A stretch of DNA of 64,000 nt, from NCBI GenBank assembly GCA_008632985.1, contig QPGO01000127.1:124001-188000 (forward strand), given 5' to 3'. The position numbers and the translations under genes are program-made. Positions 10,127 to 55,087 of this stretch are shown in pieces. The DNA comes from Psammoneis japonica. Its lineage: Eukaryota. The notes beneath the pieces are model-generated. The model was not told the origin of the DNA. It ran no database searches and saw only the letters and a program-made list of their open reading frames with translations. How positions within the stretch are numbered: position 1 is the first letter of the stretch; each line of letters starts with the position of its first letter.

Positions 10127-12869
10127 ATGCTTGTGTTTCAATGTTTGATTGCGTTGAGCACATTTCGAGCTGTACGCGGTTTCGCATACGCACCAAACTT
10201 TATCACGAAAATCATTGAACAAGACACTGGAATTGAACCGATTGGACTGTTGCAAGTCGAGGAGGAGACGGAAAAAATCAATGGTGTGGCAGAAGACATA
10301 AAGTTACATCGCCAGTGACAACCAGATTTCCCCCCGAACCCAATGGCTACTTACATTTGGGCCACGCCAAGGCGGTATCTTTTAATTTTGCAGTCGCACG
10401 CATGTTTGGAGGCACTTGCAACATGCGTCTTGACGATACGAATCCCAGTAAGGAAGGACAAGAATATGTAGATTCCATCTTGGAAGATGTGCGATGGATT
10501 CAGTCGGGTTTGTACGACGGAGATGCACCTTGGTCAGGATCGGTTCGGCAAACTTCCGACAATTTTGATTTGATTTATGATTGCGCTGTTGCTCTCATTA
10601 AGCAAGGCGATGCCTATGTTGATTCGCTTTCTGCGGAGGAAATGAGAGAGTACCGGGGAACTCTTACTGAACCTGGTAAAGATAGTCCTTATCGAAGTCG
10701 TAGTGTGGAAGAGAACCTTGATCTCTTTGCACGGGTAAGTTGGTGTCGTTTTTCGTAATACGTGTTAGTATGGCGCGCTTCTCTGCTCACTCTGATATGA
10801 TATTGTAATAATCATGTCATCCTCTTCTTTGCAGATGAAAGCAGGAGAATTTTCAGAGGGTGAATACATTTTGAGAGCAAAAATCGACATGGCCTCTCCG
10901 AACATTAACATGCGGGATCCTGCGCTGTTTCGCATCAAGCACGAGTCTCATCAGAGTACGGGCGACGAGTGGTGCATTTACCCCATGTATGACTTTAGTC
11001 ATCCCATTTCAGATGCTGTAGAAGGAATTACTCACTCACTGTGTACTCTGGAATTCGAGGATCATCGTCCATTTTATGATTGGACCGTGGAGAAACTGAA
11101 ATCTGCTGGTCTCCTGTCGGCCAATCCTCAACAAATTGAATTCAGTCGCCTGAATGTCAAGTAAGGATATTGATATCGCGAATGTGGAGTTTCGCCACTT
11201 GATTTAAAGTGCTTCTTACACACGTGTGCGTTTGCTTTGTAGGAACACGGTCTTGTCCAAGCGAAAACTGATTCAGTTAGTGGAGGATAAGCACGTGAGT
11301 GGTTGGGACGATCCACGCATGCCCACCTTGTCCGGGATGCGGCGAAGGGGTATTCCTCCAGCCGCGCTTCGGCTATTTTGTGAGAGAATGGGTATCAGTA
11401 AGTCAGACTCGAACATTGATTACAAGGTGCTTGAGGAGTGTGTAAGAGAGGAAATGGACGAAGTTTGCGCTCGTGCCTTTTGTATTTTGAAACCCCTCAA
11501 GGTGACCATTCAAAACTGGGGTGGCTCCACTCTCGAGGACTTTGATGTACCACGTCATCCAAAGAAGGAGGAAATGGGCGAAAGAACGATTCCTTTTGGG
11601 AAGCACCTGTATATAGAACGTAGCGATTTCTTCGATACGGAGGGTCCGGAAGGTGAAGCTACTGGCAAGGCGCCACCTAGAGGTTTCAAACGGCTTCTTC
11701 CTGGAGGACAGGTTAGGCTCAAATATGCATATGTCATTAGTTGCGATGAAGTCGTGAGAGATCCAAAAACCAATGAGCCGACAGAGTTGGTCTGCACCGT
11801 CTATCCTGAAACACGAGCGGGCGTGACGCCCGAAGGAATGAAACGAGTCAAGGGAATTATTCAGTGGGTGGAAGCTAGCTCTGGCATCAAGTGCAAAGTC
11901 AACCAATACGACAGACTATTCCTTACCGAGGAACCGGGAAAAGAAAGTGGAGACTACATCAAGGATATAAATCCCAACTCGCTAGAAGTTTTGGAAGGGG
12001 TGGTCGTCGAACCAAGTGTTGCCATGGATGCGCTCTCCATTCTTGCCGACATTCGTCAACAGGAAGAAACTGGAGTCGAAGGAGAAAAGATTTACCCCTC
12101 TCAGTTGGCCTATCAATTCGAACGCAGTGGGTACTTTGCATTGGATCCAGCTTCGACGGACATTGACAATCTGGTCTTTAATCGCGTGGTCACACTACGA
12201 GACACCTGGGGTATGGATAAAAGCAACGCTGGTCAGTCGCAACGAAAGCGAGGCGATGGTAAAAAGCAGCCGCAACAGAGAAAAAGGGGTGGCGGCGGAG
12301 GAGGAGGTAACAATGCCGTTGTGGAAGACATTCGCCGCCCAGCCCTTCGAGCAGCCACGATTTTGGAAGCTGGTCCCCATCCGGAAGCAGATAGTCTTAT
12401 TGTGTGTAAAGTGGATTGCGGCGACGTCTCTGAGGAAACAAAAGAACCCGAACCTCGAACTGTGGTGGCAGGCCTTGCTGGTAAAATTCCTTTCGACGAC
12501 TTGGTTGGAAGTAAAGTTGTTTGCGTCACCAACCTCAAGCCTGCGAAGATGCGTGGAATAGAGAGCACGGCAATGCTCCTGGCGGCGTCCGATGGCCAGG
12601 AAGGTGACAACGAAAAGGTGGAACTCCTGTCCGTGCCTGATGCTGTCCCGAACGGAGAACTTGTGTCGTTTGAGGGCAAGGAAGCGAGCGAACCTGATCC
12701 CATGATGAAGAGCAAAGGCGCCGTCAAGGCATGGGAACGAGCCAAGTCAGGACTCCAAGCAAATGCTGAAGGGGTGGCGACGTATGTGCAAGACGGGAAA
12801 GATTACCCAATGATTACTAGCGCTGGCCCAGTGAAGACGACGTCGCTGGTCAATGCTGACATTCAATGA
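10127..12869 (+). CDS. glnS: Glutaminyl-tRNA synthetase with N-terminal targeting peptide and C-terminal tRNA-binding OB-fold (Trbp111/EMAPII-like)
   Basis: [28 protein letters not shown] (HIGH), [16 protein letters not shown], then [30 protein letters not shown]. Introns 10735-10834 and 11161-11242. One frameshift near 10275-10305. Confidence 0.93.
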
Positions 12870-15832: not shown

Positions 15833-16895
15833 AGAGGACTTTGCATGGCAGGTGGCGGCAGGGCAGTTGAGACGCCACAGAAGGCAGTGGAGTGTTGTGT
15901 GATGCAGCATTGTGGCAAGGTTGCAACTGTTGTGGAGACCTTGCAAGGTCAATGGAGGCACTTGTTTGCATGCCGCCAATGGTTTCAGCACTGACCCTGT
16001 GAGGGCAAAGATGCATTTTATGTCCCCGAAGGTGGCGGAATCCGGGTTCTGGATTTTTGACAGAAACGCCATCGGGGACATTTTTCATGACCCCTTGGGT
16101 GCCAGGATGACGAAACGAGCATTTGTGCCCACGGGCAAAAAGCACCCTGCCAGGCGGAAGGCACCCGGAAAACAGTGCCCTGTTGGGCACTTTGCTTCTT
16201 TGCAGGGTGTCCGGCACGTGATGAACGCCCACAACATGCGCTGCAATCCTGCGAGCTCTGGCAGCTCTTTTGCAGCAACTCCCTCCAACCCAAGTTTTCA
16301 CATCAAGAAATCACACAAGCAACCATGAGCCATGAGCCACTCTCCCACCTGCTCCCACCCCTTCCAGCCACAAGACAATGCCTGCTTGCAGCACAGAAGA
16401 GTTGCTTGCATTGCACAGCAAAGAAGACGTTGACATTTTTGGCCTGACGGCTTCTCAAAATGCGCCTGCTGCTGGCGCAAGTGATGAGAGGCTGCTGTCG
16501 TCAACAAGGCAACCGACCGGCCATCAGGTGGCAAAAAACGTTTGTGTTTCAGTTTCCTGGCATCTTTGAGAAGGCAGCCGGTGAGCACATTTCTGCTTGG
16601 ATTTGCCCTTCTTCACATTGTTTTGATCAAAATCGAGCTCCATCATGCATTCTCAAATTGTTGGATGATCTGGCACTCTTCAAGATGAGCTGCCGGAAGG
16701 AGCACTCAGCACTTCTGTTGCTCATAAATTGCTTGTGTTGAGTGCCAACAAAATGGGTCATCCAAGGACAAAGCATGGCGTGACTGCTGCAACGAATCCG
16801 TGAGCTCCAAGAATGATGCCATCAAGTTGGGAGCGGTGATGGGGGTGATGGAGAAAACATCATTTTGCAGTTTAGATGGAGACGACTGACAAGCA
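15833..16895. other. TpA-depleted domain B (CpG largely retained)
   Basis: One TA seen between 15833 and 16724, while dozens of CG remain. No credible CDS. Confidence 0.85.
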
Positions 16896-17567
16896 CTGTA
16901 AACAATTTGGGCTATAAATCGAACATCCACAAGCGGCATGTCTTGGTTTGCGTGAGGCATAAAAAATAGACGTCAATCTGTTTTCGAGTGATTCTCCGTT
17001 ACGGAGAGACACACTTGCTGTGGACAATTCGAGTCACATTAAATCCTGGCTATATTTTTTTTGCTATTTTTGATTAGGAAGTTTTGGAAAGTGACAAATC
17101 TAGAATTGTCTAATTTTAAAAAAGTTACGTATTACAAATCTTGAGCTATGACGTTATGTATGTTGATAATCTAAAACTGTCCAGTTCTAGAATTGGACAA
17201 TTTAGTTCTCTATGCATAGAGAGCGAAATTGTGGGAAAATGTCCGAAAGACATCGTTTCGACTTTAATAAGTCATTTTGAAAGAAAGTTTCATAAATGGT
17301 TTTGAAAAGTACATTATTTTTAAGATATGTTCATAATCATCACTCTGTCGTGCTGTAGTAGGCATAAAAAGGTACTATGGTACCGGTATTGACCATTTTC
17401 AGTCATTTGACGCGATGTTTCAAGTTTTGGATCCTGCATGCAACCGTGGTTCCCGTCATGATTCCGACGCACGAGTATTCATGTTGTCCATTATTTCTAC
17501 TTTTGCTCTCGTTCGAAAGCATCTGCGGTAGAACAACTGCAAACCATCTCTCTCATATCAATCATTC

Positions 17568-19298
17568 ATGAAGTATTCAGCTCTGACTGTTTTTGGATTG
17601 CTCTCTGCAGCAACCATTGGGTTTGTCGCATGGGACAAAACTCGTTCCCACGAGTTCAAGATGACCAAGATGTCACCTCCGGAAGGACCAGGAGACGTTT
17701 CAAACACCCTCAATCTTGGTGCACATGAGCCGTGCTTCATCTGTGGAACAACAGATGGGGTTGTGGGTAACAAGGATGCAATGGTTTCGGCGCCTTCCTT
17801 TCTGCGCGGCATAGATGGCGGCAAGCATCATGGCGTTACTTGTGAACGCTACGACAACATGGGTGTGACCGGTAACATCGTCCCAGAGTTGTGTAACGAT
17901 CCTTTGCACAAAGCCTACATCGACGTACAATGCGAGTGTATGGCAAAGAAGAACGACGCGGACGCTGCGACGCCACCGGAAGGTGGTGTTCGAGAAGACG
18001 GTGGAGGGGAATACTTCCAAGATGCCAACCTCAAGCGCCTAGGCCTTCGGGTACACAAGCGAGCTCGAGATGGGGCAATTGGTCTCCAGTTGGCCGATGG
18101 CCGACCCATCACTCCCGACATTCTTGAAAAGATGCGCAACAGAATCAAGACCGGGGAGGGACGCAAGCTTGGTGACAAATCTGCAATTGTGATAGACAAT
18201 GGTTCAGGCCTTATTAAGGCCGGCTTTGCTGGCGACGATGCTCCCAGAGCAGTCTTTCCGTCAATTGTAGGCCGTCCCAAGCACCCAGGCGTGATGGTAG
18301 GGATGGGACAAAAGGATGCTTATGTTGGTGATGAAGCCTTTGCGAAACGTAGCATACTGACCATCAAACATCCTATCGAACATGGCATCGTGACCAATTG
18401 GGACGACATGGAAAAAATTTGGCATCACACGTACTACAACGAACTCCGTGTAGCTCCTGAAGAACATCCCGTGTTACTCACCGAAGCCCCTCTCAATCCG
18501 AAGGCAAATAGGGAGAAAATGACACAAATCATGTTTGAAACCTTCAATGCCCCACAATTCTATGTGTCAATCGCAGCCGTGCTCAGTCTATATGCGACCG
18601 GAAGAACCACAGGGATTGTTCTCGATGCTGGTGACGGTGTTACCCACGTTGTTCCAATTTATGAAGGCTATGTGCTTCCTCATGCTGTGAACAGGCTAGA
18701 CCTTGCAGGAAGAGACGTCACAGACTTTCTACGAACGATCCTGTCAGAACGCGGTTACTCATTCACAACTTCGGCTGAAAAAGAGATTGTCCGTGACATC
18801 AAGGAAAAATGTTGCTTCGTGGCTATCCACTATGATGACGAGATGCTAATGGCGTCCGTACGGAAACACGAACACGATCAGAACTACGAACTACCTGATG
18901 GTCAAGTCATTACTATCGGCGCCGAACGATTCCGTGCACCAGAAATGCTGTTCAAACCTCGTTTGATAGGTTCAGAGCAAAAAGGGATTCACAGGCTGGT
19001 GCATGATACGATTATGAAGTGTGATTCTGACACTTGGAAGGAATTGTATGGCAACATTGTGATGGCTGGCGGAAGCACCATGTTTGAAGGCATTGCAGAA
19101 AGGTTACAAAAAGAAGTGTATTACCTTGCTCCTGATGAAAGTGTGGTAGTCAAAGTAATTGCTCGTCCTGATCGAAAGTATTTGGCGTGGATTGGGGGCT
19201 CAATCCTTGCCAATCCAGAAGACTTTGAGGACAGGTGGATCACCAAGGACGAATACGACCAAGCGGGCCCATCAATTGTTCACAGAAAGTGCACTTAG
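17568..19298 (+). CDS. ACT: Actin-like protein with a 201-aa N-terminal extension (signal peptide, Cys-rich domain, RKL site)
   Basis: Single 576-aa ORF. Residues 202-576 are actin ([86 protein letters not shown]). N-terminus [22 protein letters not shown]. Confidence 0.9.
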
Positions 19299-22200
19299 CT
19301 TCATAGATTCCATGTTCAAGTTAGTTTTGACCCTTGTCGCCTACATTAGGGCTGTATCTATGTGCTCCTAGAGATGATTTGAAATGCACACCGTTGAGAA
19401 AATCTTGAGCAATTCCGCGTTCTAGATGAGACATTTTGGATGTCCAGTGCACTGGCTTGCTGGGCAAGAAGTGGTGAAGAGCAGGGCAAATGCAATGAGC
19501 TTGGTCATTTTTGGAGAGATTGGAGAGTGCTTTGTTGGATTGCAGATGGTGATTTTGTGAGAGGGGCAAGAGATGCTGTGATGTGATTTGAAACAATCTG
19601 TGCGCAGTTGTTCCACATTACTTTTGGTCACTGTGCACAATTGAGGATCATGGTTCGCATGCACAGCGCCAGTGCATCGCGCCTTCAAGATTGCTGTGAG
19701 GTGGCAGATGGCACTGTCAGCTTGTTGCACTCCTGCTGTTATTGTTTCAGGCCAGTCAGGATGTCTCCTGCATGCACAGTCAGATTGAAGAGGGTTTGCA
19801 TTCATCAAGACTGCCCCATTGACACACAGGAACAGTGGCAAGCTGCCTTGTCATTGTGGCTGAGCAGCCTGCCTCATCTGCCTTTGCCCAGCTTCACACA
19901 GCTCATGCCAGCCACAATGAGTGACTGCACCATGACACCCAACAGCAGAAAACAAGTCTTGTCTTGATGATGATGCTCCTCCCCTCTCATCTGTGTGTGC
20001 AGAGTGTGGAGGCTGTGGAGCACATTGGTGCTGGCCTGTGCTTTGTCCTCTTTCTGCTTGCTTGAATCTTTTGCTTTCAGGTGCACCCAAGCCTGCTGGT
20101 GCTCTGCACTTTCAGGCTAAAGCCCAGAGAACAGGGTCCATCAAAATTGAGAACATGCACTCCTCCTTGATTGGCCAACAGCCTCATGGCACTCAGCGCG
20201 ATGATCATGCTTCTAGATGCAATGTGCACATGCATTTGATGGGATGTTTGGGTGCTTTCTTGTCAGCCTTGGTGGTCAACGCTGTCTGTTGTTTGCCACT
20301 CCATTGGCACACAGTGTCTCTGCATCTCTCAGCACTTTGAAAAGCAGGCATGATTGGCTTCTTTGCCAAATTGGAAAGCTGGCACTGTTCATCACAGCAG
20401 CCCATACAAAGCCAAGCTGACCTTTGCACATTTTCAGTCAGCAATGTTCTTGATTTCCACATTTGACACTTTGCACTTGTCATTGAGCACGTTGAAAATT
20501 TTTCTTGGTGCTGCAGCACCAAATGCAGCCATTGGTTGTTCACACTCTTCAATGGAGTGGGTCCCCGGCACAGCTGGGACAAAAAATTGAGAAAATCAAA
20601 ATCCAGCGCAGTTGCTTTGAGTTGGAGGAGGATTCATCGGAGGTGTGCCTGTCTCATCCTGGGGTTGATGTGCATGACGAGGGGGGTGAGGGGGTGACAC
20701 ATCATCACACTTTGCGTTGGTGGGTTCTTTGCAGCATGGCTCTTTTTGCTTGCATTTGAAAGCCAACTCCAGGTTTCCTTGACTGCTTGGTTTGGTTTTG
20801 CCCATTTGGGGATTCCCCAAAATGGCAAGGGCAAGGGGGAATTGCCTTGCCCTTTTGGGGAACACCCAGGAAATGAGGGCAATTTGGCGGGAAGGAAAGG
20901 CTGAAAGGGGTCAGGGGAAGGATCAAAAAATGAGTGCCGCGCGGCAATTCCCATCTTGTTTTACATGGGCGGGTGTGCTGTTTGTCACATCATCTGGCCA
21001 GCCAGAGCCAGCCATGGTCTGCCGCCAATGACCATGACAGATGCATTGACAAATCAACACAAAGCATCCCCTTGTGGTGCAACAAGGGAAGAACAACTTT
21101 GCCATTCAATCATGCACATTGACATTGCTCACAAGGTGTCTGCAAAAGTGGCAGCCATGCTCTGATGGGAGGGGCTCCAGTCCTCTTTGGAAGTGGTGCC
21201 GCACAAAGCTGTCGAGTTCCTGCACAGCCTGTTCTGTGAGTTGTGGGTGTGGCCACCTTCCACAGCTCTTCACTTTGCTTGTTTGATTGACTGTTCCTCA
21301 GACATGCTTCAAATGGTGAGCTCATTTTGACCACAAAGAAGCAGCTTCAAATTGGCGATCTGTTTTCTGTGTGGATTGTGCGCAACATTCCAGCATCTCT
21401 GATGTCACACAGGGAACATTCAATCTCCTAAAATGATCCTTTGCAAACTCAAACTGGACTGACAACAAGATCATCTCATCACCCATGAGCTGCAGCACTG
21501 TCTTGCAACCAAAGCAGCTCTTTGCAAAGTTGATTTTTGAGCTGATTTCAGCTCTCAAACCAAGAGCATTCAAAACATTTTTGTGCTGCTGAGCTGCTGT
21601 TGACTGTCATGATCATGAGCTCCTTTCCATCTCTAAGACAGTGCTGCAATGATGTCAGCGGGGCACTCAAATGTTTTGCACTTTGTTGCGGAATCTTCTG
21701 TTTGTTCTCAAATTGAGCTGCCCACAAGACATCTCAATCCATGCAAGACAAACAAGTGCCAGGCCGTCAGATGTTGTGATCTTGCCTTTTGGTGGAGACC
21801 GTGGTGGCAGCAAGCACACACAGCTTGCTTGTTTGAGCTCCCACCAACAGGAAAGATGGAAACTCAGCAATTTGTTCAATTCTCTTTGGCAATGATTGAA
21901 AACAGATCTGAGTGTCAACACAAGATGCAGCAATGTCCATCCAAAACAAAGACTTCTCCAAGAGCTTCATGGTCTCATCCAACCATGCCCCAGATGACTG
22001 GAGCATGGTGTTTGTCAACAATGACACCCTGGTGAGGAATCAAGTGAAAGAGAAGCAAATTGCTGTTCAGCCAGTCGTTGGTCATTTGTGACAAAATTGC
22101 AAGGTGAAAAAGCAACAAACAAGTCACACCTGCTTTGGATTTTTGCCTTTTGTTGATGTCATTGATTGTCAAGATTGTGGCCAAAGAAGATGCAATGTCT

Positions 22201-22325
22201 CAAAAAATGTGTGAACCAAGAAGAGGGCAACAAGCAATGTGCTGCAGGTTTCATGACAATTGATGTGGTGTCAGCAGCTCACAACAGCTGTGAACTGATG
22301 AATGCCACCATCATTGAAAGACATT

Positions 22326-22983
22326 GTTGGGGATGGCAGTGGAGCCTGGAGTTGTGCAGATGCAGTGAGAGGTTCAAAACCTCTGGAAGATGGCCCAACA
22401 TCTTACATCTTCTGTCATTGGCACAACATCTTTAGGCAATGGAGTTGGGAATGTCCACCATGCAGGAGATCACAAAGATGTCAAAGACCAAACTTCTGGA
22501 AGTGGATCAACCACAAAAGAGCAAGGAGATCACTCCTCTTGTTCCTTTGTAGAAACCCAAAAGTGATTGAAAAATTGCTTGGGAGTTTCAGTCTGCTGCT
22601 TCTGTCATGGACTTTTGCTTCATGGGCAGATGAGTTGGAAGTGAGTGGACGACATCCTGATCCAATGTTTTGTCCTGTCCTTTGCACATGACTCCATCTG
22701 CAGATGAGCTGAGATGCGAGAACTGAGCCAACTGCACCAAATCCAGATGCATGATCTCCAACAAGCCAATGAGGATCAAGCTCTGAACTAGATGGAACCA
22801 ACAGAGAGAGCAGAGAGGCAAGTTGCCAAGATGTGCCCAGGTGACTGGCAATCAATTTTGTCTTGCAACAAGCAGGAATTGCTCGTGGGAGGCTTGGATT
22901 GATCCCCCAAGCAGTCCACAGACCCACCCAGGTCATCCATGAAAGTGCAGCCCTGCTTGTTGGTGTCTGGCAAGCCACATCCA
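22326..22983 (+). repeat. ~660-bp degenerate direct repeat, copy 1 (copy 2 at ~27011-27683)
   Basis: Shared blocks include catgcaggagatcacaaagat and gagtttcagtctgctgcttctgtcatggacttttgcttcatgggcaga. Confidence 0.9.
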
Positions 22984-23052
22984 GAAGGGGTTGCCAAATG
23001 GATGCAATTGCCATGACAGACCACAGACTGCACTGCACAACAAAAACCATGC

Positions 23053-23317
23053 TCCACCCTGTTCAAACTCTCAGCAGGCAAAGAAACATTTCATGAACAC
23101 TGTTGCCACTCTGGATGACATCCCTGTGGCCCATGCACAAAATCTGTGTGTGGCCAGTCCAGTGCTGAAAAGGCCCTGTGGAAATCCACCCTGTTCAAAC
23201 TCTCAGCAGGCAAAGAAACATTTCATGAATGCTGTTGCCACTCTGGATGACATCCCTGCAGCCCATGCACAAAATCTTGTGTGTGGCCAGTCCAGTGCTG
23301 AAAAGGCCCTGTGGGAA
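23053..23317 (+). repeat. 132-bp tandem duplication
   Basis: Units start at 23053 and 23185 (tccaccctgttcaaactctcagcaggcaaagaaacatttcatgaa...). Confidence 0.95.
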
Positions 23318-25236
23318 CCATCATGTCCAACCTGGGTGGCGGATGAGACCAAACATGGCACAATGACTGGCCAAGCAAGGTGCGAGAGAGCACAAGGAAT
23401 GTGGTTCATGTCATCACAACCCAAGACAGTCTCTGAAGAATCACAGCAATTTCAAAAATGTGTCATTTGGAGACATCTGATCCCCAATGTTTTAGAAAGA
23501 CATTTGTGAAATCAGCACCAAGGCACAGAGAACAGATGGCTGATGGATGGGGCACACACAAGTGGATGAATCGGCAAAGCCAGCCCATCCTCAGTTTTTT
23601 GCATTTGAGGTTTGTTGTGCTGGTTGTGTGTGGAAGCCTTGTGGACAGTGCAGCCAAATCCAAGTCTCCCTCTGCTTTTTTCTTTTTCCCCCCAGCCCAC
23701 CCCTTCAACCTGACAAAGTGCACAGAGGGCTCAGGACAGATCTGCAGTGGTGGTCCTGATGTGGTCCAAAAACCAGGCACAGTCAAAAGCACCCTTCTTC
23801 CCAGTTTTGCAGTCATTGCTCTCATGGACACAAGCAGCAAGGGTGAGGCCACATTGCCCCATGATGACATTGAAAAAGGCAAGAAGGTCTTCATCAAGCT
23901 GGCGCAATTCTTTGGTGACATGGGTCTTCACCAGCTCCTCTGGCTCATGTTGGCGCAGACAGTTGCCGGCATTGTCAATGGCTTGCACTCCTGCTTTCTC
24001 TTCTGCTGATGGTTTTGTGCCAAGGGCTTCCTTGGCATGGTGTGGTGTTGGTGCCTGTGGGCACTTGCACTTGGGGTTGACAAACATGCCCTTGAAGAGA
24101 GAACGCGTGTGTCATTCGGGTGTGTGTTCTTTGCCAGTGAACTCTTCAAGCTTGAGAGGATGGCCCTAAACTGGTTGGGGTTGGATGACAAACCTTGTTG
24201 CACGCGTTGATTGTCATTCAGTGCATTTTGTTGGTTCCTTTGATTCTGTCCACCTTGATTTTGGCAACCCTGTCCTTGGCTCCCATTGTTGCCTGGACAA
24301 ACGGGTGGGCTGTTGGTTGTCCTGCCATGGCATTGTCACTGGCAGGTGGGGGTTGAGCACTGTTGGCACTCATTCTCTGTGTGGTGCATTCCACATTCCT
24401 GGGATTGCAGCAGATGGGATCATTTGTGGGGCATTGCCCTGCTTGAGTGTCACACATGATGACCACCCTGGTGGCCATGAAACCTGCAACAGCGCCAGCA
24501 CTGCCAGCTGTGATGTGGGTTCATTTGAACCTGCTGACTCTGTCACCCCCTGGGAGACCCTTGTGCATGTTGCAGTCCTGCCAGGTTGCCCATGTTGGTC
24601 CAGTGCCTCCAGAGGAGTCAAGGGAGTCTGTGAGCATTGCCAGTCATTCAGCAAGTGCAATGTTCAGATGGTGAGCGCTTTAAGCTCTTTGGACAGTGCC
24701 GCCATCTCAGAGTTGTTCCGCATCCAGAGTTTGTGCTTTCTTACTTCGGCGGTTCTTCAAAATTGATTCCAAAATGAAAACAAGTTGATTTCTTTTGCGT
24801 GACTGTCACACGGCGCGTTCAGCTCCATACCTTTCAGTCAGAAGGAAGAGTAAACAACAATCAGCTGTCCATCTTAATTTGTTACGCAATAGAATGAGAC
24901 GAACCCATGGTCATCATCTCATTCGATACGATTGTTCTTTGGGCATGAGGTCGACGTGGTCCTCGTCTGAGCCGTCCAGCTCTATCAGTTAGCCTAAGGT
25001 ACTTCTCCGCTTACGGTGTCTCGGTAAGCCAGTCTACAGCGGCCAAGTCCAGTACTTTTGGGAGAATGTCATTGAAAGGTCAATGTAATCATGTAATCTA
25101 TGTACGGCGGTAACCCGTTCTCTCACTACTCGATGGTGCATTCGTAAGTTGCTCATTCATGCATTCAATCAAGATGCTCCATAAAGTGTTTCTTAATAGT
25201 TGAACTACTACTATGCATGCCTATCGATACTTCTTG

Positions 25237-26764: not shown

Positions 26765-28728
26765 GACTGACCGCTCTGCGCTGCACGTCCCAGGCGGGAT
26801 CGGCTCCCACCTCCGACAGACCAAGAGTGGCGATGCCGGCCCGAAGTTGTGCAGTGTCCTCCTGGATGACGACATTGCGCTGCGACACAAATTTCCACTT
26901 GTGGTTGCTCCAGGAAGCCCCTCCAAGGTGGGTTGTTCCGTGGGTTCAGAAAATTGAGGATGATTCCAAGCCTGCCTGGCGATGAGGAAGATGCCTCACC
27001 ACAGGAGTGTGTTGAGGATGGCAGTGGAACCCAGAGTTGTGCAGATGCAGTGAGCGGTTTAGAGCATCTGGAAGATGGCCAAACAACATCTTCCGTCATT
27101 GGCACACCATCTTCTGGCAACAGAGTCGGGAATGTCCGCCATGCAGGAGATCACAAAGATCTCAAAGACCAAATTTCTAGAAGCAGATCAACCACAAAAG
27201 AGCAAGGAGATCACTCCTCTCGTTCCTTTGCAGAGACCCAAAAGCAATTGAAAAATTGCTTGAGAGTTTCAGTCTGCTGCTTCTGTCATGGACTTTTGCT
27301 TCATGGGCAGAGTTGGAAGTGAGCAGACATTCTGTTCCAATGTTTCACTGCCATCCTGTCCTTTGCACATGACTCCATCTGCAGACGAGCTGAGATGTGA
27401 GAACTGAGCCAACTGCAAATCCAGATGCATGATCTCCAAGCCAATGATGATTGAGCTCTGAACCAGATCATCTCCACCTCGTCCACCGACAGAGCCAACA
27501 GAGAGAGCAGAGAGGCAAGTTGCCAAGATGTGCCCAGGTGACTGGCAATCAACATTGTCTTGCAACAAGTCAGAGTTGCTCATGGGAGGCTCAGATTGAT
27601 CCCCTGGCCAAGCAGTCCACAGACCTGCCCAGGTCATCATGAAAGTGCAGCCCTGCTTGTCAGCATCTTGCAAGCCACATCCAGGTCAAATTTTTCTGGA
27701 GCTTTCCAGTGTGTGTGCTTGTTGTGCCAAAGCAAAGTTGGCAATGGGCCCAAGAACTTTGTCCCATCATGTGTTGCAAAATGGAGCAACTGTGCTCACA
27801 CAAAATTGTGCTCATCTCAGCAACTGTGAATGGGCTTGCAGTCACCCAGAGCTGACTGCAAGCACACTGGTTGCCAGCCTTTTCCAGAAAGGCACCACAG
27901 CTTGTTTGCTGCAAAAGGATGATTTTGGCAAAAATCAACAACTTTCCTGTTGTGGTGGCAACTTCACAAAATCTGACAATTGGAGGCCAAAGCACAAGCT
28001 TGCAACCCTGGATGAACAGCTCAGTCTTAATGGCACAAGCATCAGCAGGTAATTTGTTCTCCCCAAGATCATCACACCAGGGGCAGCTGGCTTCAACCAA
28101 AGTCACAACAGCACGCAGATGAGCTCTGGAGGAGGATCCCTGCCATTGCAGATGACACATGTGCCAAGGGAGTGCAAGCCAGCATTGAAGGTTTTGGCAC
28201 TCACAAAAATGGCACAGCGCACATCTGCCTCATGTTTTGGTTTGACACTCTTCACTGTGGTGGTGTGTCAACCACACCTGTCATGTGTGAGTGGATGACC
28301 AGCAAGCCAGGGCCACATGCTGTGTTGATGACAGCCACTGAGTCCATGGCCAGTGCCAGGTCAATTTCCATCAACAGAGAAGAGCCATGTGGATGCTCAC
28401 AGTCCATTGATCAGCACCAGGACTGAGACCAGTTTTGTCAGTTTGGAGGAGTTGAGTGTGAGATTGAGGTTGGATTTTGAGCAGAGTGCCATCAAAAACA
28501 CCCTCCTTGAGCCAAGCACGTCAAAGGAGGTGAGCATGTCATGTCCTGACCATCACTCATCTTCTGGCAATTGGTTCCTTTGTCAGTGGATCATGGGGCA
28601 GAAGTCTGACTGTGCCAGCCCAGTTTTGTGATGGCCACCAACCTGTGTCGTCTGCACTGCCGCCTGTCAGATGCTGCCTTGTTGCACTTTGGGGCATTGT
28701 GCCGATGCCGAGTTCCAGAGGTGCTCGC
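26765..28728. other. TpA/CpG-depleted decayed domain D
   Basis: TA nearly absent. CG survives only at the edges. Contains repeat copy 2 and most of the VMO-I pseudogene. Confidence 0.88.
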
Positions 28729-37374: not shown

Positions 37375-37732
37375 GAGACACAAATAGATATTCTCGTTTG
37401 TACTTCTGACAAGGACGACTCTTGCGCAGCAGATCTCTCATAACATCGTTTCTCTCGCAGTCTCTTACGGTACCACTTCTTCCGAATCGCCAACAGCATG
37501 ATGTGCTTGTTTCAGTCTGTTCTCCGCGGTCATTATTGTGCCTCAATTTGTTTTTTAAGCCCACCATGCAAATGACCCAAAAACTATGTCCGTCCACTAT
37601 GATATTTTGAATACAAGTACCACACAAGGTACCATACATTTATCTCCTCATTTTTTTTTCCAGCGTAACTGTAGCATAGAAAGTCACAACCCAAAGTAGT
37701 TATTGCTAAACCAGGCATGAGCATGAAGGGAC

Positions 37733-40700
37733 ATGGCGCCTTTACCTCTTTTCTTAATAGCGGCTGTTATAATGCTATGTTGTAATCCACTTGTCAAGGC
37801 CGGTTTTCCGAGCAACATGAGTGCACGAGATAAAGAAAAACTCGGGGGCATGATGAACGGACAACTTGCGATCCCCGATGCCATGCCGCTGTTTGTAAAG
37901 TACAAAAACAACAAAGGCAAAAGGGTTGCAAAGCGCTGGGCAAAGAACAAAAAGTTTGTAAAACATTTTCCAAAGCGCAAAATTGTGATTCTTCATGCCA
38001 AAAACAGCACCGCTCTTAGGATTCTCACCAAGAGCCGCGTCATTGCCTACGTCGAACCGGTTCACAAGGTGCATGCTCTGCCAGTAGGCGAGCATATACG
38101 AATGCTACATGCTCGTGTTTTAGAGGAACATATTGGCTATGGAGTCAAAATGGTACAGGCAGACAAATTATGGGACCTTCCTGCATCAAAGGACAAAATC
38201 ACGGTATGCGTCATCGACAGCGGATACGGGTTGGGGCACCCTGATTTGCCTAGCTTGGACAACAACGTTACTGGAACTTCGACAAGAACTGGCGATTGGA
38301 GACAAGACGGGTACGGTCATGGTACACATTGTTGTGGGATTATTGGCGCGGTTGGCGGCAATGACATGGGGGTTACAGGTGTGATAAGAGATCCTGCAAG
38401 ATTCAAGTTCCACATTGGAAAATGTTTGGATAGCAACGGAGACGGTACTGAGGGCGAAGTGTTGGATGCGTTCGACAAATGTAGAGATGCCGGAGCAAAA
38501 GTCATTAGCATGAGTCTAGGTGGAGACGATTACAGCGAGTCAATCCGGAGTGCTTGTAAGGATGCCTATGATGAAGGTGTTCTCGTGGTTGCTGCATCTG
38601 GGAATGGGGGGAACTCAGACTATTCATACCCAGCGTCGTTCCCAGAGGTCGTGTCCGTTGCAGCTGTTGATCAATTTATGAAGGTCGCTAGTTTCTCTCA
38701 ATACAACGACCAAGTAGAGATCAGTGCGCCTGGGGTTGATATTATTTCCACAGTCGTGACTAACAACGGACAAGATTTCGGCTACGAAAGATGGTCGGGA
38801 ACATCAATGAGTACTCCGTTCGTTGCTGGAGTAGCTGCAATGGTTTGGTCATACTTTCCTGAGTGCTCCAACAACCAGATCAGAAATGTTCTTATTCGAA
38901 CTGCAAAAGTTAGAGGTCGCCCCGGATGTAATGACGAGCTGGGGTTTGGCGTCGTACAAGCCAAGGATACATATGAACTGCTTAGGAAAGACGGATGCAT
39001 TGCAGGCGGCTTAGATCCTGCCATTTTGTCGGATGGCGCGGTGGGGGGGTGTCTTCAGGACCCACTGTATACAGCGTCTCCCACGGAAGCTCCCACCCCA
39101 TTCAGCTGTGAAGAGACGGTGTTTCGACTCGAGTTAACCACCGACAACTGGGCCGAGGAGACTTCATGGGTGGTAGCAAACTCTTCCAACGAGGTTGTGG
39201 GTTCCGGTGGGTCATACCGTGATTCCAACGTGTATACCGAGAACCTGTGCTTACCTCCTGATGAGTACACTTTTACTTTACGGGATTCCGGCAAGGATGG
39301 AATTTGTTGTGCTTATGGTCAAGGAGGCTATGAAATTTATTTCGATGAAAAACTTGTAAAGAAGGGTGGAAAGTTTGAAACTGAAGACACGGCTCTTTTT
39401 GGAGAGGTGTATGAGACCGACATAACGCCATCTCCAACCGCAACTTCCAGTGTGTGTCAAGATGACAACAAATGGACTTTCGTTACTTCTAGAGGAGTTA
39501 CAAAGAAATGCAAGTATTTGAAGGTGGATTCTACTTCGCGGTGCAAGCTTTTGGGGATCAACAAATCTGGAAAGGCCACTTCTGGCTTCTTCTCTTGCCC
39601 AGTTACTTGTGGTAGATGTTCCCCAAGGCTACCATCATCTCCTGTTACTTCGTCGCCAATGTCTAAGTCTTCAGAAGTGCCAATGACGTTGCTACCAACA
39701 ATATCAACATCACCTCCATCACCACAGCCTACAATTTCGCCTACCAAGTCTCCGACAAGCGTATCAACTGGAAGGTCAACGACGTTTCAGCCTACAGTAT
39801 TACCATCGTTTCCGCCTAATACTTTTCCACCGACGCCATCACCGACAACCCGGCCAACAGCGCTGCCGTCTTCGCAGCCTACAATGTCATCTACACAATA
39901 TCCCACTGCGCTGCCGACACTCCCTCCAATCTCACCTTCAGCATCACAAGACAAATCGTTGACAGTCGTACCGACAGAAGCCCCGACGTTAGCCGCTCCC
40001 ACTCCACCGACGCCAGCTCCAACCCCAACTGAGGCACTGCATACCAAAAGCCCGACATTGTCTCCAACTATGGCGCCCCCACCGCGGACGCTGGCCCCAA
40101 CTACAAAGTCGCCTACCAAGATGCCAACAAGATCTCCGACATTATCACCGACCGTAGCTCCCACGCCACCGCCGCTACCCGACGAGCCGTGTGATACCAA
40201 TTATTGCAATTTCTACGACATTGCCTGTGTCAAGGAATCCAAATTTCCGTATATCTCTACTTCGAATGGGGAGTCATATCTATGCTGTGTAGGCTCCGGC
40301 TTTTGTAAGGACTATCGAGATGGCAGAAACCCCTCCAGTGTTCAAGGTAGCAGCTATGATTACCTCTGCTGTCGGGGGAAGCAGACATGCTCCGGTTCGC
40401 ACATTGAACTACCTCGCAAGGGAGCTTGCTGCCAAAGCACAAATTCCTGCAAGTTCTCAACGTTTACGAGATCCAATTCCATATCTGGTAGCATTGGACT
40501 GAGGTGTGAAGGCACTCAATCCTGCAAAGACACCGACTTTAAGAATGCTGGGCCGATGGACTTTTGCTGCACAAGCGACGGAGATCAGACGTGTGCAAGA
40601 ATGATTGAACCTGACATGGATAGCAGGGTGAATATGTTGACAAGAGATCCTCCCACCATCCCATCAGCACCAGAAACAGTATTAGCCCCAAGCACGGCTC

Positions 40701-41191
40701 TCGAAGAGCCCCCAACCGCACCACCTGACGAGCCGTGTGATACAAATTATTGCAATTTCTGCGACATTGCGTGTGTCAAAGAATCCAAACTTCCATACAC
40801 CGCTACTGTGAATGGGGAATCGTATTTGTGCTGTGTAGGCGAAAGCACATGTAAGGACTACCGAGAAGGCAGCAAACCCTCCAGTGTTGCTGGCCATGGC
40901 CATGATTATCTCTGTTGTCGCGGAAAGCATACATGCTCCGATTCACAAGTTGAGCTTCCTCGAAAAGGTGGTTGTTGCCAAAACATAAAGGCATGCAAGT
41001 CTTCGACATTTACGAGGTACAATTCCATTTCTGGCAGTATTGGACTAAGGTGTGAAGGTACCCACGCCTGCAAAGATTCTGACTTTAGGGGCGCTGGGCC
41101 AATGAACTTTTGCTGTATCAACGAAAAAGATAAAGCTTGCAGTAGAATGATTGACCTGGAAGCAAGCAGTCAGGTGGTCTTCTTACCTTGA
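37733..41191 (+). CDS. Secreted subtilisin-like (S8) protease with C-terminal accessory domains, Pro/Thr/Ser linker and two Cys-rich repeats
   Basis: Signal peptide; triad VCVIDSG / HGTHCCG / SGTSMSTPFVAG; AASGN oxyanion site; RVL before the catalytic domain; repeats starting PDEPCDTNYCNF x2. Confidence 0.93.
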   Translation: MAPLPLFLIAAVIMLCCNPLVKAGFPSNMSARDKEKLGGMMNGQLAIPDAMPLFVKYKNNKGKRVAKRWAKNKKFVKHFPKRKIVILHAKNSTALRILTKSRVIAYVEPVHKVHALPVGEHIRMLHARVLEEHIGYGVKMVQADKLWDLPASKDKITVCVIDSGYGLGHPDLPSLDNNVTGTSTRTGDWRQDGYGHGTHCCGIIGAVGGNDMGVTGVIRDPARFKFHIGKCLDSNGDGTEGEVLDAFDKCRDAGAKVISMSLGGDDYSESIRSACKDAYDEGVLVVAASGNGGNSDYSYPASFPEVVSVAAVDQFMKVASFSQYNDQVEISAPGVDIISTVVTNNGQDFGYERWSGTSMSTPFVAGVAAMVWSYFPECSNNQIRNVLIRTAKVRGRPGCNDELGFGVVQAKDTYELLRKDGCIAGGLDPAILSDGAVGGCLQDPLYTASPTEAPTPFSCEETVFRLELTTDNWAEETSWVVANSSNEVVGSGGSYRDSNVYTENLCLPPDEYTFTLRDSGKDGICCAYGQGGYEIYFDEKLVKKGGKFETEDTALFGEVYETDITPSPTATSSVCQDDNKWTFVTSRGVTKKCKYLKVDSTSRCKLLGINKSGKATSGFFSCPVTCGRCSPRLPSSPVTSSPMSKSSEVPMTLLPTISTSPPSPQPTISPTKSPTSVSTGRSTTFQPTVLPSFPPNTFPPTPSPTTRPTALPSSQPTMSSTQYPTALPTLPPISPSASQDKSLTVVPTEAPTLAAPTPPTPAPTPTEALHTKSPTLSPTMAPPPRTLAPTTKSPTKMPTRSPTLSPTVAPTPPPLPDEPCDTNYCNFYDIACVKESKFPYISTSNGESYLCCVGSGFCKDYRDGRNPSSVQGSSYDYLCCRGKQTCSGSHIELPRKGACCQSTNSCKFSTFTRSNSISGSIGLRCEGTQSCKDTDFKNAGPMDFCCTSDGDQTCARMIEPDMDSRVNMLTRDPPTIPSAPETVLAPSTALEEPPTAPPDEPCDTNYCNFCDIACVKESKLPYTATVNGESYLCCVGESTCKDYREGSKPSSVAGHGHDYLCCRGKHTCSDSQVELPRKGGCCQNIKACKSSTFTRYNSISGSIGLRCEGTHACKDSDFRGAGPMNFCCINEKDKACSRMIDLEASSQVVFLP

Positions 41192-52184: not shown

Positions 52185-52552
52185 GGTAGCATATCATTCA
52201 CATCGCATACAAGAAGAGAGTGTGTTTCTCCCAACAACTAAACGGATGCATCGACAAAGGAACAACGAGGAAACAACAACAGAGAAGAATCCGATCAAAA
52301 ACGAGTTGAACTCGTTGGATGCAATTTTTGGAATTTCAATGCTATCCTCATATCTGTAGCAAACCAAATAATGACGTCACATGATCTCATTTTTTCTTCG
52401 GAAGTTTCCCTCCGACGCAAGATGCGGGACAAGATGAGAAGTACAACAGCAGGTTCAACATAGCAGCACATAACCGAGAGGCGAGATCAATGCGACAACC
52501 CAATTTCAAAAGTACATCCGATACATTTTCCCTAGCACATCCCTAGTTGAAC

Positions 52553-54172
52553 ATGTTGGTTCGCTTTGCTACATTCGCTTACAGATCTATGGCTCGTTGG
52601 TCGAGGAGGCAGTTACTAAGAACAACAACGACGACGACAACAACACGTTTAACATGCTTTTCCACAATTTCCAACAAAAATCAAGAAGATACACCTTCTG
52701 TTAATCCCATCAATGGCGATTTGGATGATTTGTGTCGCAAGCACATGGATGTGCCCGCTCAAGAGTTTGCCATGGGATGCAGTTTTCTCCACAAGGTTGC
52801 ACTGGGAATTTCGGTAGATGAATTGGAACAAATTCTAGAGGAACGACCGTCGTTGGTGAATTTTCGTGACTACGATCGAAGAACACCGCTTCATGTAGCT
52901 GCCTCCGAGGGACACGCCGACATTTGCAAGCTACTCGTCGAGCATGGGGCCTTGATTAATCGGAGTGACCGGTGGGGTGGATCGCCTTTAGATGATGCGC
53001 ATCGGCACAAGCATGCCGAGGTGTTTGAGCTGTTGCGCAAGGTCGGAGGTGCTTTTGGAAGTCCGTCTCAAGCCAATAATTTCATAACGGCGGCATCCGA
53101 AGGTGATGTCGAAGAAGTTAAGGCATTGTTGGAATTTGGAAACATTGATATAAATCAGGGAGATTATGACAAGAGGACGGCTTTGCACTTGGCGAGCTCA
53201 ACGGGTCACTTAGAGATGGTTCAATTGCTTTGTGACGCGGGAGCCGATACCAATGTGGAGGATCGATGGGGAAACCGGCCTCTGGACGATGCCCATAACG
53301 AAAACCATCAAGAGTGTGTCGAAATTTTGACAGAGTTTGGAGCCAAGTCGTCTGCGACTCCAGTTTTGGGACAAGAAGCATTGTTGGATTTGATGCATCA
53401 ATACGGCAAAATGCGAGACGGTGTGCTCTCCATGGATTGGCACGACGTGAAGGATCTCTTGGTGGGTATCGGCAAGGAACCAACCGACGAGGTTGTGCAA
53501 AAGCTCTTTCAAGTGGCAGATTCGGACCACGATGGTGTAATTCACCCACACGAATTCATTGCCAACAGCGAAACCTTTTTAGGAGGCCGGCCTGCAAGAA
53601 TTATTCTCGTTGTAGGCGGTCCCGGCAGTGGCAAGGGTGTATTATCAGAGAGACTGGTCAAGGAGTGTGGTGTCGTCCACTTGTCCTCGGGAGAGTTACT
53701 TCGAGACGAAGTGGCACAGGGCACAGAACTCGGCAAGCAAGTGGAAGAAATTATGAAGTCGGGCGGTTTGGTGAGCTCGGCCATTATGGTGACACTCATG
53801 CAAAAGCGCATGAAGGACCATCCCGGAAAACGTATATTGTTGGATGGGTTCCCAAGGTCTCAGGAAAACGCACAAGATCTCGTGACGCTATGCGGCAAAC
53901 CGGAACTAGCTTTGCATCTGACGTGTGATGATACTGTCTTGTTGGAGCGCATCATGAAGCGTGGTGAAAGTGGAGAACGAGCCGACGATAATTTCCAAAC
54001 CGCCATTCAGCGGGTACGAACCTATCACAAGTACCATCAAGTCACGTTGGATTTTCTGAGAGCCGAAAATGTTCCAGTTGTCTTTTTGGATTGTTCCGCC
54101 ACACCCGACGGTGTTTGGGAGCAGCTGCGATCCATTGGACGGCTCATGAGATCGACTGTGAAACTTGTGTAG
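52553..54172 (+). CDS. Ankyrin-repeat / EF-hand / adenylate (UMP-CMP) kinase fusion with a probable mitochondrial presequence
   Basis: DYDRRTPLHVAASEGH-type ANK pairs x2; ADSDHDGVIHPHEF EF-loop; GGPGSGKG, HLSSGELLR, LLDGFPR, RADDN. Confidence 0.9.
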   Translation: MLVRFATFAYRSMARWSRRQLLRTTTTTTTTRLTCFSTISNKNQEDTPSVNPINGDLDDLCRKHMDVPAQEFAMGCSFLHKVALGISVDELEQILEERPSLVNFRDYDRRTPLHVAASEGHADICKLLVEHGALINRSDRWGGSPLDDAHRHKHAEVFELLRKVGGAFGSPSQANNFITAASEGDVEEVKALLEFGNIDINQGDYDKRTALHLASSTGHLEMVQLLCDAGADTNVEDRWGNRPLDDAHNENHQECVEILTEFGAKSSATPVLGQEALLDLMHQYGKMRDGVLSMDWHDVKDLLVGIGKEPTDEVVQKLFQVADSDHDGVIHPHEFIANSETFLGGRPARIILVVGGPGSGKGVLSERLVKECGVVHLSSGELLRDEVAQGTELGKQVEEIMKSGGLVSSAIMVTLMQKRMKDHPGKRILLDGFPRSQENAQDLVTLCGKPELALHLTCDDTVLLERIMKRGESGERADDNFQTAIQRVRTYHKYHQVTLDFLRAENVPVVFLDCSATPDGVWEQLRSIGRLMRSTVKLV

Positions 54173-55087
54173 TCTTGATTTTTGGTATCATGCTGTTCAA
54201 TTTTGAGATACAGAAAGGTTGATAGCTTCCTTTTTTTTTAAAACTAAATGCAGGTCTGAGAAAATGACATTGCAGTCAGCGAGCGTACGAACCAATCACA
54301 AGTGCCACAATAAGTCTTTTCTATTGTTCCTATGGCGTTTGGGAGCAGCTTCTTTTCATCGAACAGCCCATGACATCGACTATGAAACTAGCTATAGCTA
54401 CTCTAGCTAGGAGTAGAGAGTAGAGTACAGTATGTATGTACCGGGTAGCGTATGTACGGTACTTGAGAGCTTTGTTAGTCCTGTGAGTCGGATTGATGAT
54501 TCGGGCATGTCTGTACTGCGTCCGAAACCCGAATGAGTTCGCGGATGATGAGCCAGAGGAGGGCAATAGAAAAAGTAGATGGCTTCCCCCCACTTAAGAG
54601 TCGCGTTTTTGGGAAGCCATAAAACTTTTTTCCAAGAAGATTGGTTAAGCCCGTTTTTAAATGTTCCATAAGCGTTAAATGTGTCGAAAATCTGTTTAAC
54701 GCTATGCGGTCATCGCTTGTCATACAAAGTGGTGTAGAAAGTTGTCTTTTTCACATGCTTCCGGAACGGATCATCGAACTATTTTTCTTCTTTCCTTTAA
54801 TAATGTAGAGCACCGGTGAATTGTGTTAAGTATCAAGTTGCCTTTTACTTATGAATTTCGGACATTCTCACACCCAACGGACTTGCCGAGCAAATTCAAC
54901 ACGCTGTCATCACGAAGAACGTTTCGTGTTTGCTCCACGAGAGACAACGGCTAATCGTGCTTTTCGAGATGGCATTGCCCCGTGCCCCGTTGATTGTTTT
55001 TTCTTCAAAGGTAAACCTGCACAGTAGATTCATTGATAGCATCAAAGAGTGCACTCCTAGTCATCACTGCAGTGTTCGCAAGACACC

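Follow-up and report, generated by a model that had tools for sequence, protein, structure and literature searches.

A predicted secretory-type actin fusion in Psammoneis japonica: a leader, a six-cysteine module and a conserved linker in one frame with a complete actin domain

A 64,000-nucleotide stretch of the Psammoneis japonica genome (GenBank assembly GCA_008632985.1, contig QPGO01000127.1, positions 124,001 to 188,000 of the forward strand), hereafter called the window and numbered from its own first letter, contains a gene in which a hydrophobic leader, a six-cysteine module and a linker precede a complete actin domain within one open reading frame (ORF) of 576 amino acids (17568..19298, + strand). 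Actin is regarded as a protein confined to the cytosol and the nucleus. The arrangement found here points to an actin fold that enters the secretory pathway, a route on which actin is not expected. The fusion protein itself is very probably real, and its entry into the secretory pathway is probable; that the gene is functional, restricted to its lineage and devoted to a secretory-pathway protein with an actin fold is the reading towards which we somewhat incline.

The frame starts with an ATG at 17568, ends with a TAG codon (19296..19298, +) and is interrupted nowhere, in agreement with the original prediction, which had been made from the letters alone and whose translation proved correct as quoted. 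Among the 35 ORFs of at least 60 residues that overlap positions 16000-21000 it is the longest, the runner-up having 167 residues, and its stop-to-stop frame begins at 17532, 12 codons upstream of the ATG. Scored against the codon usage of the neighbouring genes, the 201-residue extension that precedes actin gives +0.20 bits per codon in frame, versus –0.26 and –0.29 in the two shifted frames; taken separately, its three parts reach +0.19 to +0.24 in frame and less when shifted, and the value for the actin part is +0.18. No second copy of the fusion gene was found in the window.

The extension was compared with 1.84 billion representative proteins by phmmer (residues 1-201, E<=0.001), and seven proteins matched. 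The best of them, P0122 (E 1.7e-29), is a 236-residue fragment from a single 1003-base contig, which in one frame carries a leader, a six-Cys module and a linker, followed by AVVIDNGSGMMKAGF..., and whose C-terminal end is assigned by Pfam to Actin. As read from this fragment, a second organism keeps the same fusion order in one frame; the original prediction had pointed to other diatoms as the place to look for such a counterpart. Identity to P0122 amounts to 41-43% over the extension and is distributed along it as follows: 7/22 in the leader, 3/31 with 17 gap columns in the poorly conserved pre-module stretch (residues 23-53; 17634..17726, +), 24/72 in the Cys module with all six Cys kept, 4/22 in a variable spacer (residues 126-147; 17943..18008, +), 34/47 in a linker core (residues 148-194; 18009..18149, +) and 28/32 at the actin start. 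The linker core, not the Cys module, is the most conserved part of the extension, a point missed originally. Because 34 of 47 residues of the linker core and 24 of 72 of the module are identical to P0122, the fusion is conserved and under selection, and a pattern of this kind is hard to reconcile with an ORF that arose by chance, an intron that went unrecognised or a dead chimera. The first interpretation of the gene as a chimera of an actin copy and the 5' half of a secreted-protein gene is borne out by the ORF, by its domains, by the other carriers of the module and by P0122.

The junction between extension and actin at 18170, singled out at the start as the place where support by raw reads mattered, is bridged by contigs of two runs, X1 and X2, which share one sample, possibly the window's own source, and so do not amount to independent assembly support. 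The contigs of run X1 cover 17658-18109 and 18081-19548, while a 1834-base contig of run X2 (17507..19343, +; depth 378) holds the ORF plus 61 bases on its 5' side and 45 bases on its 3' side. The X2 contig is transcript-like, which is only a hint, as the kind of run X2 is not on record; the flanks of the fusion gene are uncovered in X2, an absence that was not counted as evidence. In the contigs of both runs three bases are missing at 17747..17749 (+), an in-frame allele that lacks one Thr codon of CGTTDG inside the Cys module.

These data bear on the possibility that the gene is a recent or degenerating chimera that serves no function and has survived by accident in a region rich in transposons. 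Its position between two TA-depleted, repeat-like domains (16001-17000 and 19501-24500) would fit such an origin, as would the faster evolution of its actin part (see below) and the fact that the phmmer search brought the fusion to two occurrences only. Against it, the frame of 576 codons is intact, its dinucleotide content is normal and its in-frame codon usage is host-like; the allelic indel at 17747 stays in frame, and P0122, at 41-43% identity, is still open in the same frame and retains every Cys of the module as well as 34/47 linker-core residues. The observed/expected ratio of TA is 0.39-0.57 inside the fusion gene, similar to other genes of the window, versus 0.04-0.19 at 16001-17000 and 0.00-0.09 at 19501-24500, so that the gene has, as first stated, escaped the decay of the domains on either side of it (0.00-0.19 together). 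A functionless chimera is hardly credible on these grounds. The TA-depleted domains of the window, which include a third at 27001-28500 (0.00-0.19 in all three), have mostly low CG ratios (0.00-0.65) and TG+CA raised to 1.5-2.0.

The six-Cys module (residues 54-125; 17727..17942, +), whose cysteines are C56, C59, C92, C109, C122 and C124, belongs to an unnamed repeat family with the pattern CxxCG...TC...G..G.I...C...CxC; the further Cys residues of the protein are at positions 415, 416, 485 and 575. A pattern search yielded 27 modules, 17 of them unique, with the six Cys invariant throughout, and the profile of the 17 unique modules had one match among the 986 six-frame segments of the window, namely this module (E 6.4e-24), which confirms the Cys-rich domain of the original prediction. 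In the aligned proteins the six Cys and two Gly are invariant (7/7). Pfam matched no family to the module, to the extension or to the module proteins, beyond Actin at the end of P0122, and a sequence profile search of the Protein Data Bank (PDB) with extension alignment A2 gave 0 matches at E<=10. Five of the seven proteins matched by the extension (P0123, P0125, P0126, P0127 and P0128) consist of two to four tandem copies of the module, of about 70 residues each. P0128 opens with a leader, and its Pro/Ser/Thr-rich spacers are long; in P0123 and P0127 the modules come after an acidic N-terminal region and a single strong transmembrane segment (Kyte-Doolittle 2.2-2.5). P0124 was excluded from the module analysis, its match being limited to residues 86-116 (31 residues), without the Cys pattern. 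The six-Cys module recurs as a repeat unit in proteins whose architecture, with a leader or transmembrane segments and Pro/Ser/Thr-rich spacers, appears to be of surface type. The fusion has the module pattern in common with these repeat proteins, which carry two to four tandem modules and no actin, whereas the fusion carries one module together with a linker found nowhere else.

The hydrophobic leader recognised from the beginning (residues 1-22; 17568..17633, +) is a putative signal peptide or possibly a signal anchor. It consists of K2 and then a hydrophobic run at residues 4-22, the sole segment of the 576 residues with a Kyte-Doolittle value above 1.4 (1.71), and its candidate cuts, after G18 or A21, were placed by eye only. 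The leader aligns with that of P0122, in which MK, 14 hydrophobic residues and SGSAA/Q have the form of a classical signal peptide. As the same scan of the whole protein disclosed no second hydrophobic segment between the Cys module and actin, the actin domain would lie on the same side of the membrane as the module. Were the leader instead a reverse signal anchor, the protein would be tethered to the membrane with its actin in the cytosol, and the Cys module would bind zinc there. A hydrophobic run of 18-19 residues with a very short N-flank, a charge balance of the flanks that is about even (by eye) and the presence of CxxC and CxC pairs plus His, which could bind metal, are consistent with such an anchor; the hydrophobicity of 1.71, however, matches the leaders of P0122 and P0128 and not the anchors of P0123 and P0127 (2.2-2.5), the leader of P0122 looks classical and cleavable, and the other carriers of the module are surface-type in architecture. 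A tethered protein with cytosolic actin is quite improbable.

The linker core has no relatives outside the fusion that phmmer, the PDB profile search or the ESM Atlas could detect, the ESM Atlas searches having produced no usable match. The AlphaFold2 model of the extension has a mean pLDDT of 56.8; its linker, at the low confidence of 60-74, is drawn as a helix, a beta-hairpin (LGLRV / IGLQL) and a second helix, and Foldseek found no match to the extension model in the PDB at E<=0.001. For the full protein (alignment A3) the mean pLDDT was 38.6, low even over the actin domain; another alignment, A4 (75 rows), paired the linker wrongly with the first copies of tandem actins and was set aside. 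A prediction of the complex between the linker (residues 140-201) and the actin domain (residues 202-576) scored 0.28 (mark 0.34) and carries no weight either way.

At the end of the extension stands the protein's sole RxL, R199-K200-L201 (18162..18170, +), a candidate site of processing. The original prediction had made it the pro-site in front of an actin of exactly 375 residues without a Met of its own. The motif lies where it had been placed, but its standing as a pro-site is weak, since one RxL versus the 2.2 expected from 5000 shuffles is not a significant count (P(<=1) = 0.34) and alignments disagree on its conservation: P0122 has RRL at 27, RNL at 115 and RGL at 194, and the last of these is paired with RKL in alignment A2 and unpaired in A1. 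The RxL precedes VIDNGSG by 3 residues in the 576-residue ORF and by 8 in P0122. In the same manner the arithmetic of the 375 residues is right (576-201), but it is a coincidence, because D210 aligns with actin D11, so that actin position 1 corresponds to K200 and not to G202, and the 375 residues after RKL are made up of 373 aligned positions and two one-residue insertions. Cleavage at RKL is regarded as doubtful.

The absence of a Met at the actin start was correctly noted, the nearest in-frame Met residues being M189 upstream and M243 downstream. M189 (18132..18134, +), the only in-frame Met near the actin start, lies 13 residues before G202 and is a possible internal start. If M189 or a shorter transcript were used, the main product would be a divergent cytosolic actin, the long form would be minor or regulatory, and the extension would not travel with actin. 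In favour of this, P0122 contains a Met close to its actin start as well, the start codon at 17568 lacks both the purine at –3 and the G at +4, and a cytosolic form would fold with the cytosolic chaperonin like other actins. On the other hand, M189 and the Met of P0122 do not align; several ATGs, among them one out of frame at 17630 and the in-frame M32 and M35, come between the start at 17568 and M189 and disfavour leaky scanning; the linker core directly upstream is conserved (34/47) and in frame with actin in both organisms; and the X2 contig runs through from 17507. Production of a mainly cytosolic actin from this gene is judged unlikely.

The actin domain (residues 202-576; 18171..19295, +) is complete, and by the Pfam profile the fusion is a member of the actin family: PF00022 matches with 444.6 bits (cut-off 27; E 3.5e-133) and pairs residues 204-575 with positions 4-409 of the 410 in the profile. 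The best solved relative, 4efh_A (Acanthamoeba actin), aligns residues 204-575 to its 5-374 (E 5.4e-188), and the third among the PDB matches is 8gt4, the crystal entry of a Q137A actin. Identity of the domain to actins is 72-74% (269/376 to scallop actin), and by subdomain (SD) the identity to scallop actin is 80% in SD1 and 78% in SD2 versus 66% in SD3 and 62% in SD4, which together with the ending HRKCT agrees with the C-terminal divergence described in the original prediction. The domain matches a diatom actin piece at 201/295 and 87/100 positions and scallop actin at 207/295 and 88/103, whereas the diatom piece and scallop actin are identical at 250/296 and 98/107. Because the fusion actin is about equally far from the diatom and the scallop actins, which are closer to each other, it evolves faster than canonical actin. 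In the alignments of 98 unique full-length actins, 40 of its positions depart from a consensus of at least 90%, among them Q137A, L185V, R290W, L349P and T351D.

The functional labels of actin positions used here, and the list of residues in contact with the nucleotide, are those current in the actin literature. A table of these residues bears out the earlier observation that the nucleotide loops, the D-loop and H73 are kept: the P1 loop, the sensor loop with H73, H161, the D-loop, the W-loop and most of the P2 loop are conserved. Identical nucleotide contacts are D11-G15, K18, D154, G156-V159, G182, R210, K213 and E214, as well as G301, G302, M305 and K336; altered ones are M16L, S155A, T303S and Y306F.

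Other positions have changed in ways that went unremarked in the original prediction, which overlooked the loss of the catalytic Gln137 and of cleft residues. NPEDFEDR stands in place of SLSTFQQM at residues 549-556 (19212..19235, +), in the helix that presumably lines the barbed-end cleft, giving S348N, L349P, S350E, T351D, Q353E and M355R, while Y143, A144, G146, T148, G168, Y169, I341, I345 and L346 of the cleft are kept. Contact residues of SD3 (V287S, I289T, R290W) and the plug (F266L, L267I, M269S) are altered, K326V is a further change, and at the C-terminus F375T replaces the terminal Phe. The acidic N-terminus is absent, actin positions 1-6 reading KLGDKS after 199 further residues. 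L185V removes the sole RxL of canonical actin, a weak observation, as it concerns one of the 40 departing positions. Actin position 137 is Ala (A336; 18573..18575, +), a residue found there in 0/98 of the actin alignments, in which Gln occupies the position in 98%. Gln137 hydrogen-bonds the attacking water, and Q137A filaments have a low ATPase activity (PMC10062479). The domain departs from conventional actin in three features, namely Gln137, the free acidic N-terminus and the set formed by the cleft and Phe375. The actin domain is predicted to be a nucleotide-holding, poorly hydrolysing fold with rebuilt filament and cleft interfaces.

The mechanism proposed for the fusion starts with the leader, which would direct the chain co-translationally into the endoplasmic reticulum (ER). 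There the six-Cys module would fold as a disulfide-bonded domain, as it may do in its surface-type carriers, and the actin domain would find itself on the module's side of the membrane, luminal or extracellular. The target of the linker core is probably the actin domain, which it would cap or help to fold, and a diatom protease of the RXL type may cleave the basic junction RKL. Because Gln137, the acidic N-terminus, Phe375, cleft residues and Arg290 are lost, the actin domain would be expected to bind nucleotide, to hydrolyse it poorly, and to form no canonical filaments and hold no canonical cleft ligands; its most likely role would be that of a unit for binding or scaffolding within a matrix, in the lumen or outside the cell, and not that of a cytoskeletal element. 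Functions as a scaffold, in adhesion or as a decoy are speculation. A bolder proposal has little probability as a whole: a genuine actin would fold and work along the secretory route or extracellularly, with the linker as an inbuilt folding aid or cap in place of the cytosolic chaperonin, and cleavage at RKL would free a nucleotide-holding, non-hydrolysing actin to assemble or to bind partners in a matrix such as that of the silica deposition vesicle (SDV), the mucilage or the cell surface.

Several observations weigh against a secretory, conserved fusion. The folding of actin needs the cytosolic chaperonin CCT, and none is known from the ER. Within the ER, the NGS sequon in the phosphate loop of the actin domain (N211) might also be glycosylated. 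The one known relative, P0122, is a fragment whose sequence stops at about actin residue 38. No full-length relative was found by a word-indexed search of residues 1-201 against proteins of 316-1008 residues, nor with alignment A2 among proteins of 355-2000 residues; a scan of metagenomes, in which 60 stretches fitted the pattern and one (L001) passed tblastn, gave no relative, a scan of viral contigs gave none either, and the exact protein of 576 residues is absent from a collection of 15 billion proteins. L001, with neither the Cys pattern nor an actin, was judged a chance match. The leader, moreover, is without a clean –3/–1 cleavage site where P0122 has one, and with a cut after G18 (by eye) the residue at +1 would be Phe, a resemblance to the plastid-type signals of diatoms.

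This last resemblance, to a motif of diatom plastid pre-sequences, leaves room for a bipartite signal that would take the protein to the complex plastid or the periplastidal compartment instead of secreting it. At the corresponding position, however, P0122 has Gln, followed by an acidic stretch; the stretch after the leader of the fusion holds Asp, Glu and the Cys module, presumably folded, and a disulfide-type module of surface-type repeat proteins is unlike a transit peptide. A survey of Phaeodactylum identified no actin directed to the periplastidal compartment (PMC3101018). A plastid or periplastidal destination is distinctly improbable. As regards the searches made with the whole protein, these returned solely conventional and tandem actins, none spanning the extension. 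P0053, P0071 and P0076 were considered as relatives of the fusion and rejected, because on reading they are tandem or chimeric actins. P0053, a transcriptome-derived protein of 656 residues, is made of pieces of at least two diatom-type actins, its middle piece being apparently a somewhat divergent second actin, and is probably an assembly chimera.

Compared with conventional actin (Acanthamoeba, PDB 4EFH), the secretory-type fusion proposed here aligns end to end over the fold and keeps the P1 and P2 loops, His73, His161, the D-loop and the adenine and ribose contacts; it differs in having a 201-residue extension of secretory type instead of a Met and an acidic tip, in carrying Q137A, S155A, R290W, L349P, T351D, M355R, F375T and a partly changed plug, and in an identity of 72%, whereas the canonical actins of a diatom and a scallop share 84-92%. 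Actin-related proteins (Arps) are generally far less identical to actin than 72-74%, and the searches with the fusion returned only conventional actins. In the POTE-actin chimeras of primates, actin is likewise the C-terminal domain of a longer gene-fusion protein; the partner there is a cytosolic or membrane-associated ankyrin protein and the lineage is unrelated. NAP1 of Chlamydomonas resembles the fusion as an actin paralogue whose sequence has drifted and whose fold is kept, but it is a stand-alone cytosolic actin, for which the abstract describes no leader, Cys module or linker (PMC6541019).

Among the silica-associated secreted proteins of diatoms, silaffins, cingulins and Silicanin-1 typically have a signal peptide and a pro-region that ends in RXL and is removed by an unknown protease (PMC5525289). 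P0122 is like these precursors in having RRL at 27, soon after its leader; the fusion of P. japonica is unlike them, having no RxL in residues 23-198, hence none near its leader, and no Lys/Ser-rich or NQ-rich regions of silica type. A presence of actin inside biosilica has been reported from sponges, where 'silactin' is described as a patterning scaffold within the silica skeleton (PMC9009123). A luminal diatom actin would be a parallel to it; silactin, by contrast, is an ordinary animal cytoskeletal actin for which no signal peptide is claimed, and nothing links the fusion gene to silica. Searches of full-text literature, whose coverage did not extend to the work of Aumeier et al. 2015 on diatom actins, which may bear on novelty, brought up no description of an actin with a signal peptide. 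In a review of actin evolution from 2024 the words 'signal peptide', 'secreted' and 'fused' do not occur (PMC12050087), diatom work takes actin to stay outside the SDV lumen (PMC3000822), and the Phaeodactylum survey mentioned above reports no signal-bearing actin (PMC3101018).

The window around the fusion gene is an intron-poor region of a eukaryotic nuclear genome. Of its 45 long frames, 38 were scanned with Pfam, six overlapping alternative frames being left out along with the ORF of 576 residues, which was scanned separately; families were found in 15 frames, most of them lying in long uninterrupted frames, and include a Cys/Met enzyme dependent on pyridoxal phosphate, a DNA polymerase beta-type palm with BRCT, VOMI, tetratricopeptide repeat (TPR) proteins and a kinase. 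At 37727-41188 (+) a frame of 1154 residues contains a subtilase domain (Peptidase_S8) at residues 156-408 and then a long C-terminal part to which no domain is assigned; this gene, 18 kb from the fusion gene, is predicted to be that of a secretory-type protease. A single open frame at 59364-60779 (+) combines FKBP, TPR and cyclophilin, that is, two different prolyl isomerases in one protein, and in another, at 52547-54169 (+), ankyrin repeats are linked to a pair of EF-hands and an adenylate kinase domain. At 11208-12866 (+) the C-terminal domains of a class I Glu/Gln-tRNA synthetase are followed in one frame by tRNA_bind; an upstream exon is likely, because the catalytic part begins mid-profile. 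Helicase-associated (HA) domains occur as three stretches in 55061-55678 (+) and as one in 56758-57603 (+).

A conserved, near-complete actin preceded by a secretion leader and a module of surface type, present in at least two organisms, would challenge the assumption that actin is a protein of the cytosol and the nucleus only. It raises the questions of whether the actin fold can mature without the cytosolic chaperonin, of what effect the conserved linker may have on the actin domain, and of which ligands a non-hydrolysing actin with a rebuilt barbed-end cleft would bind.

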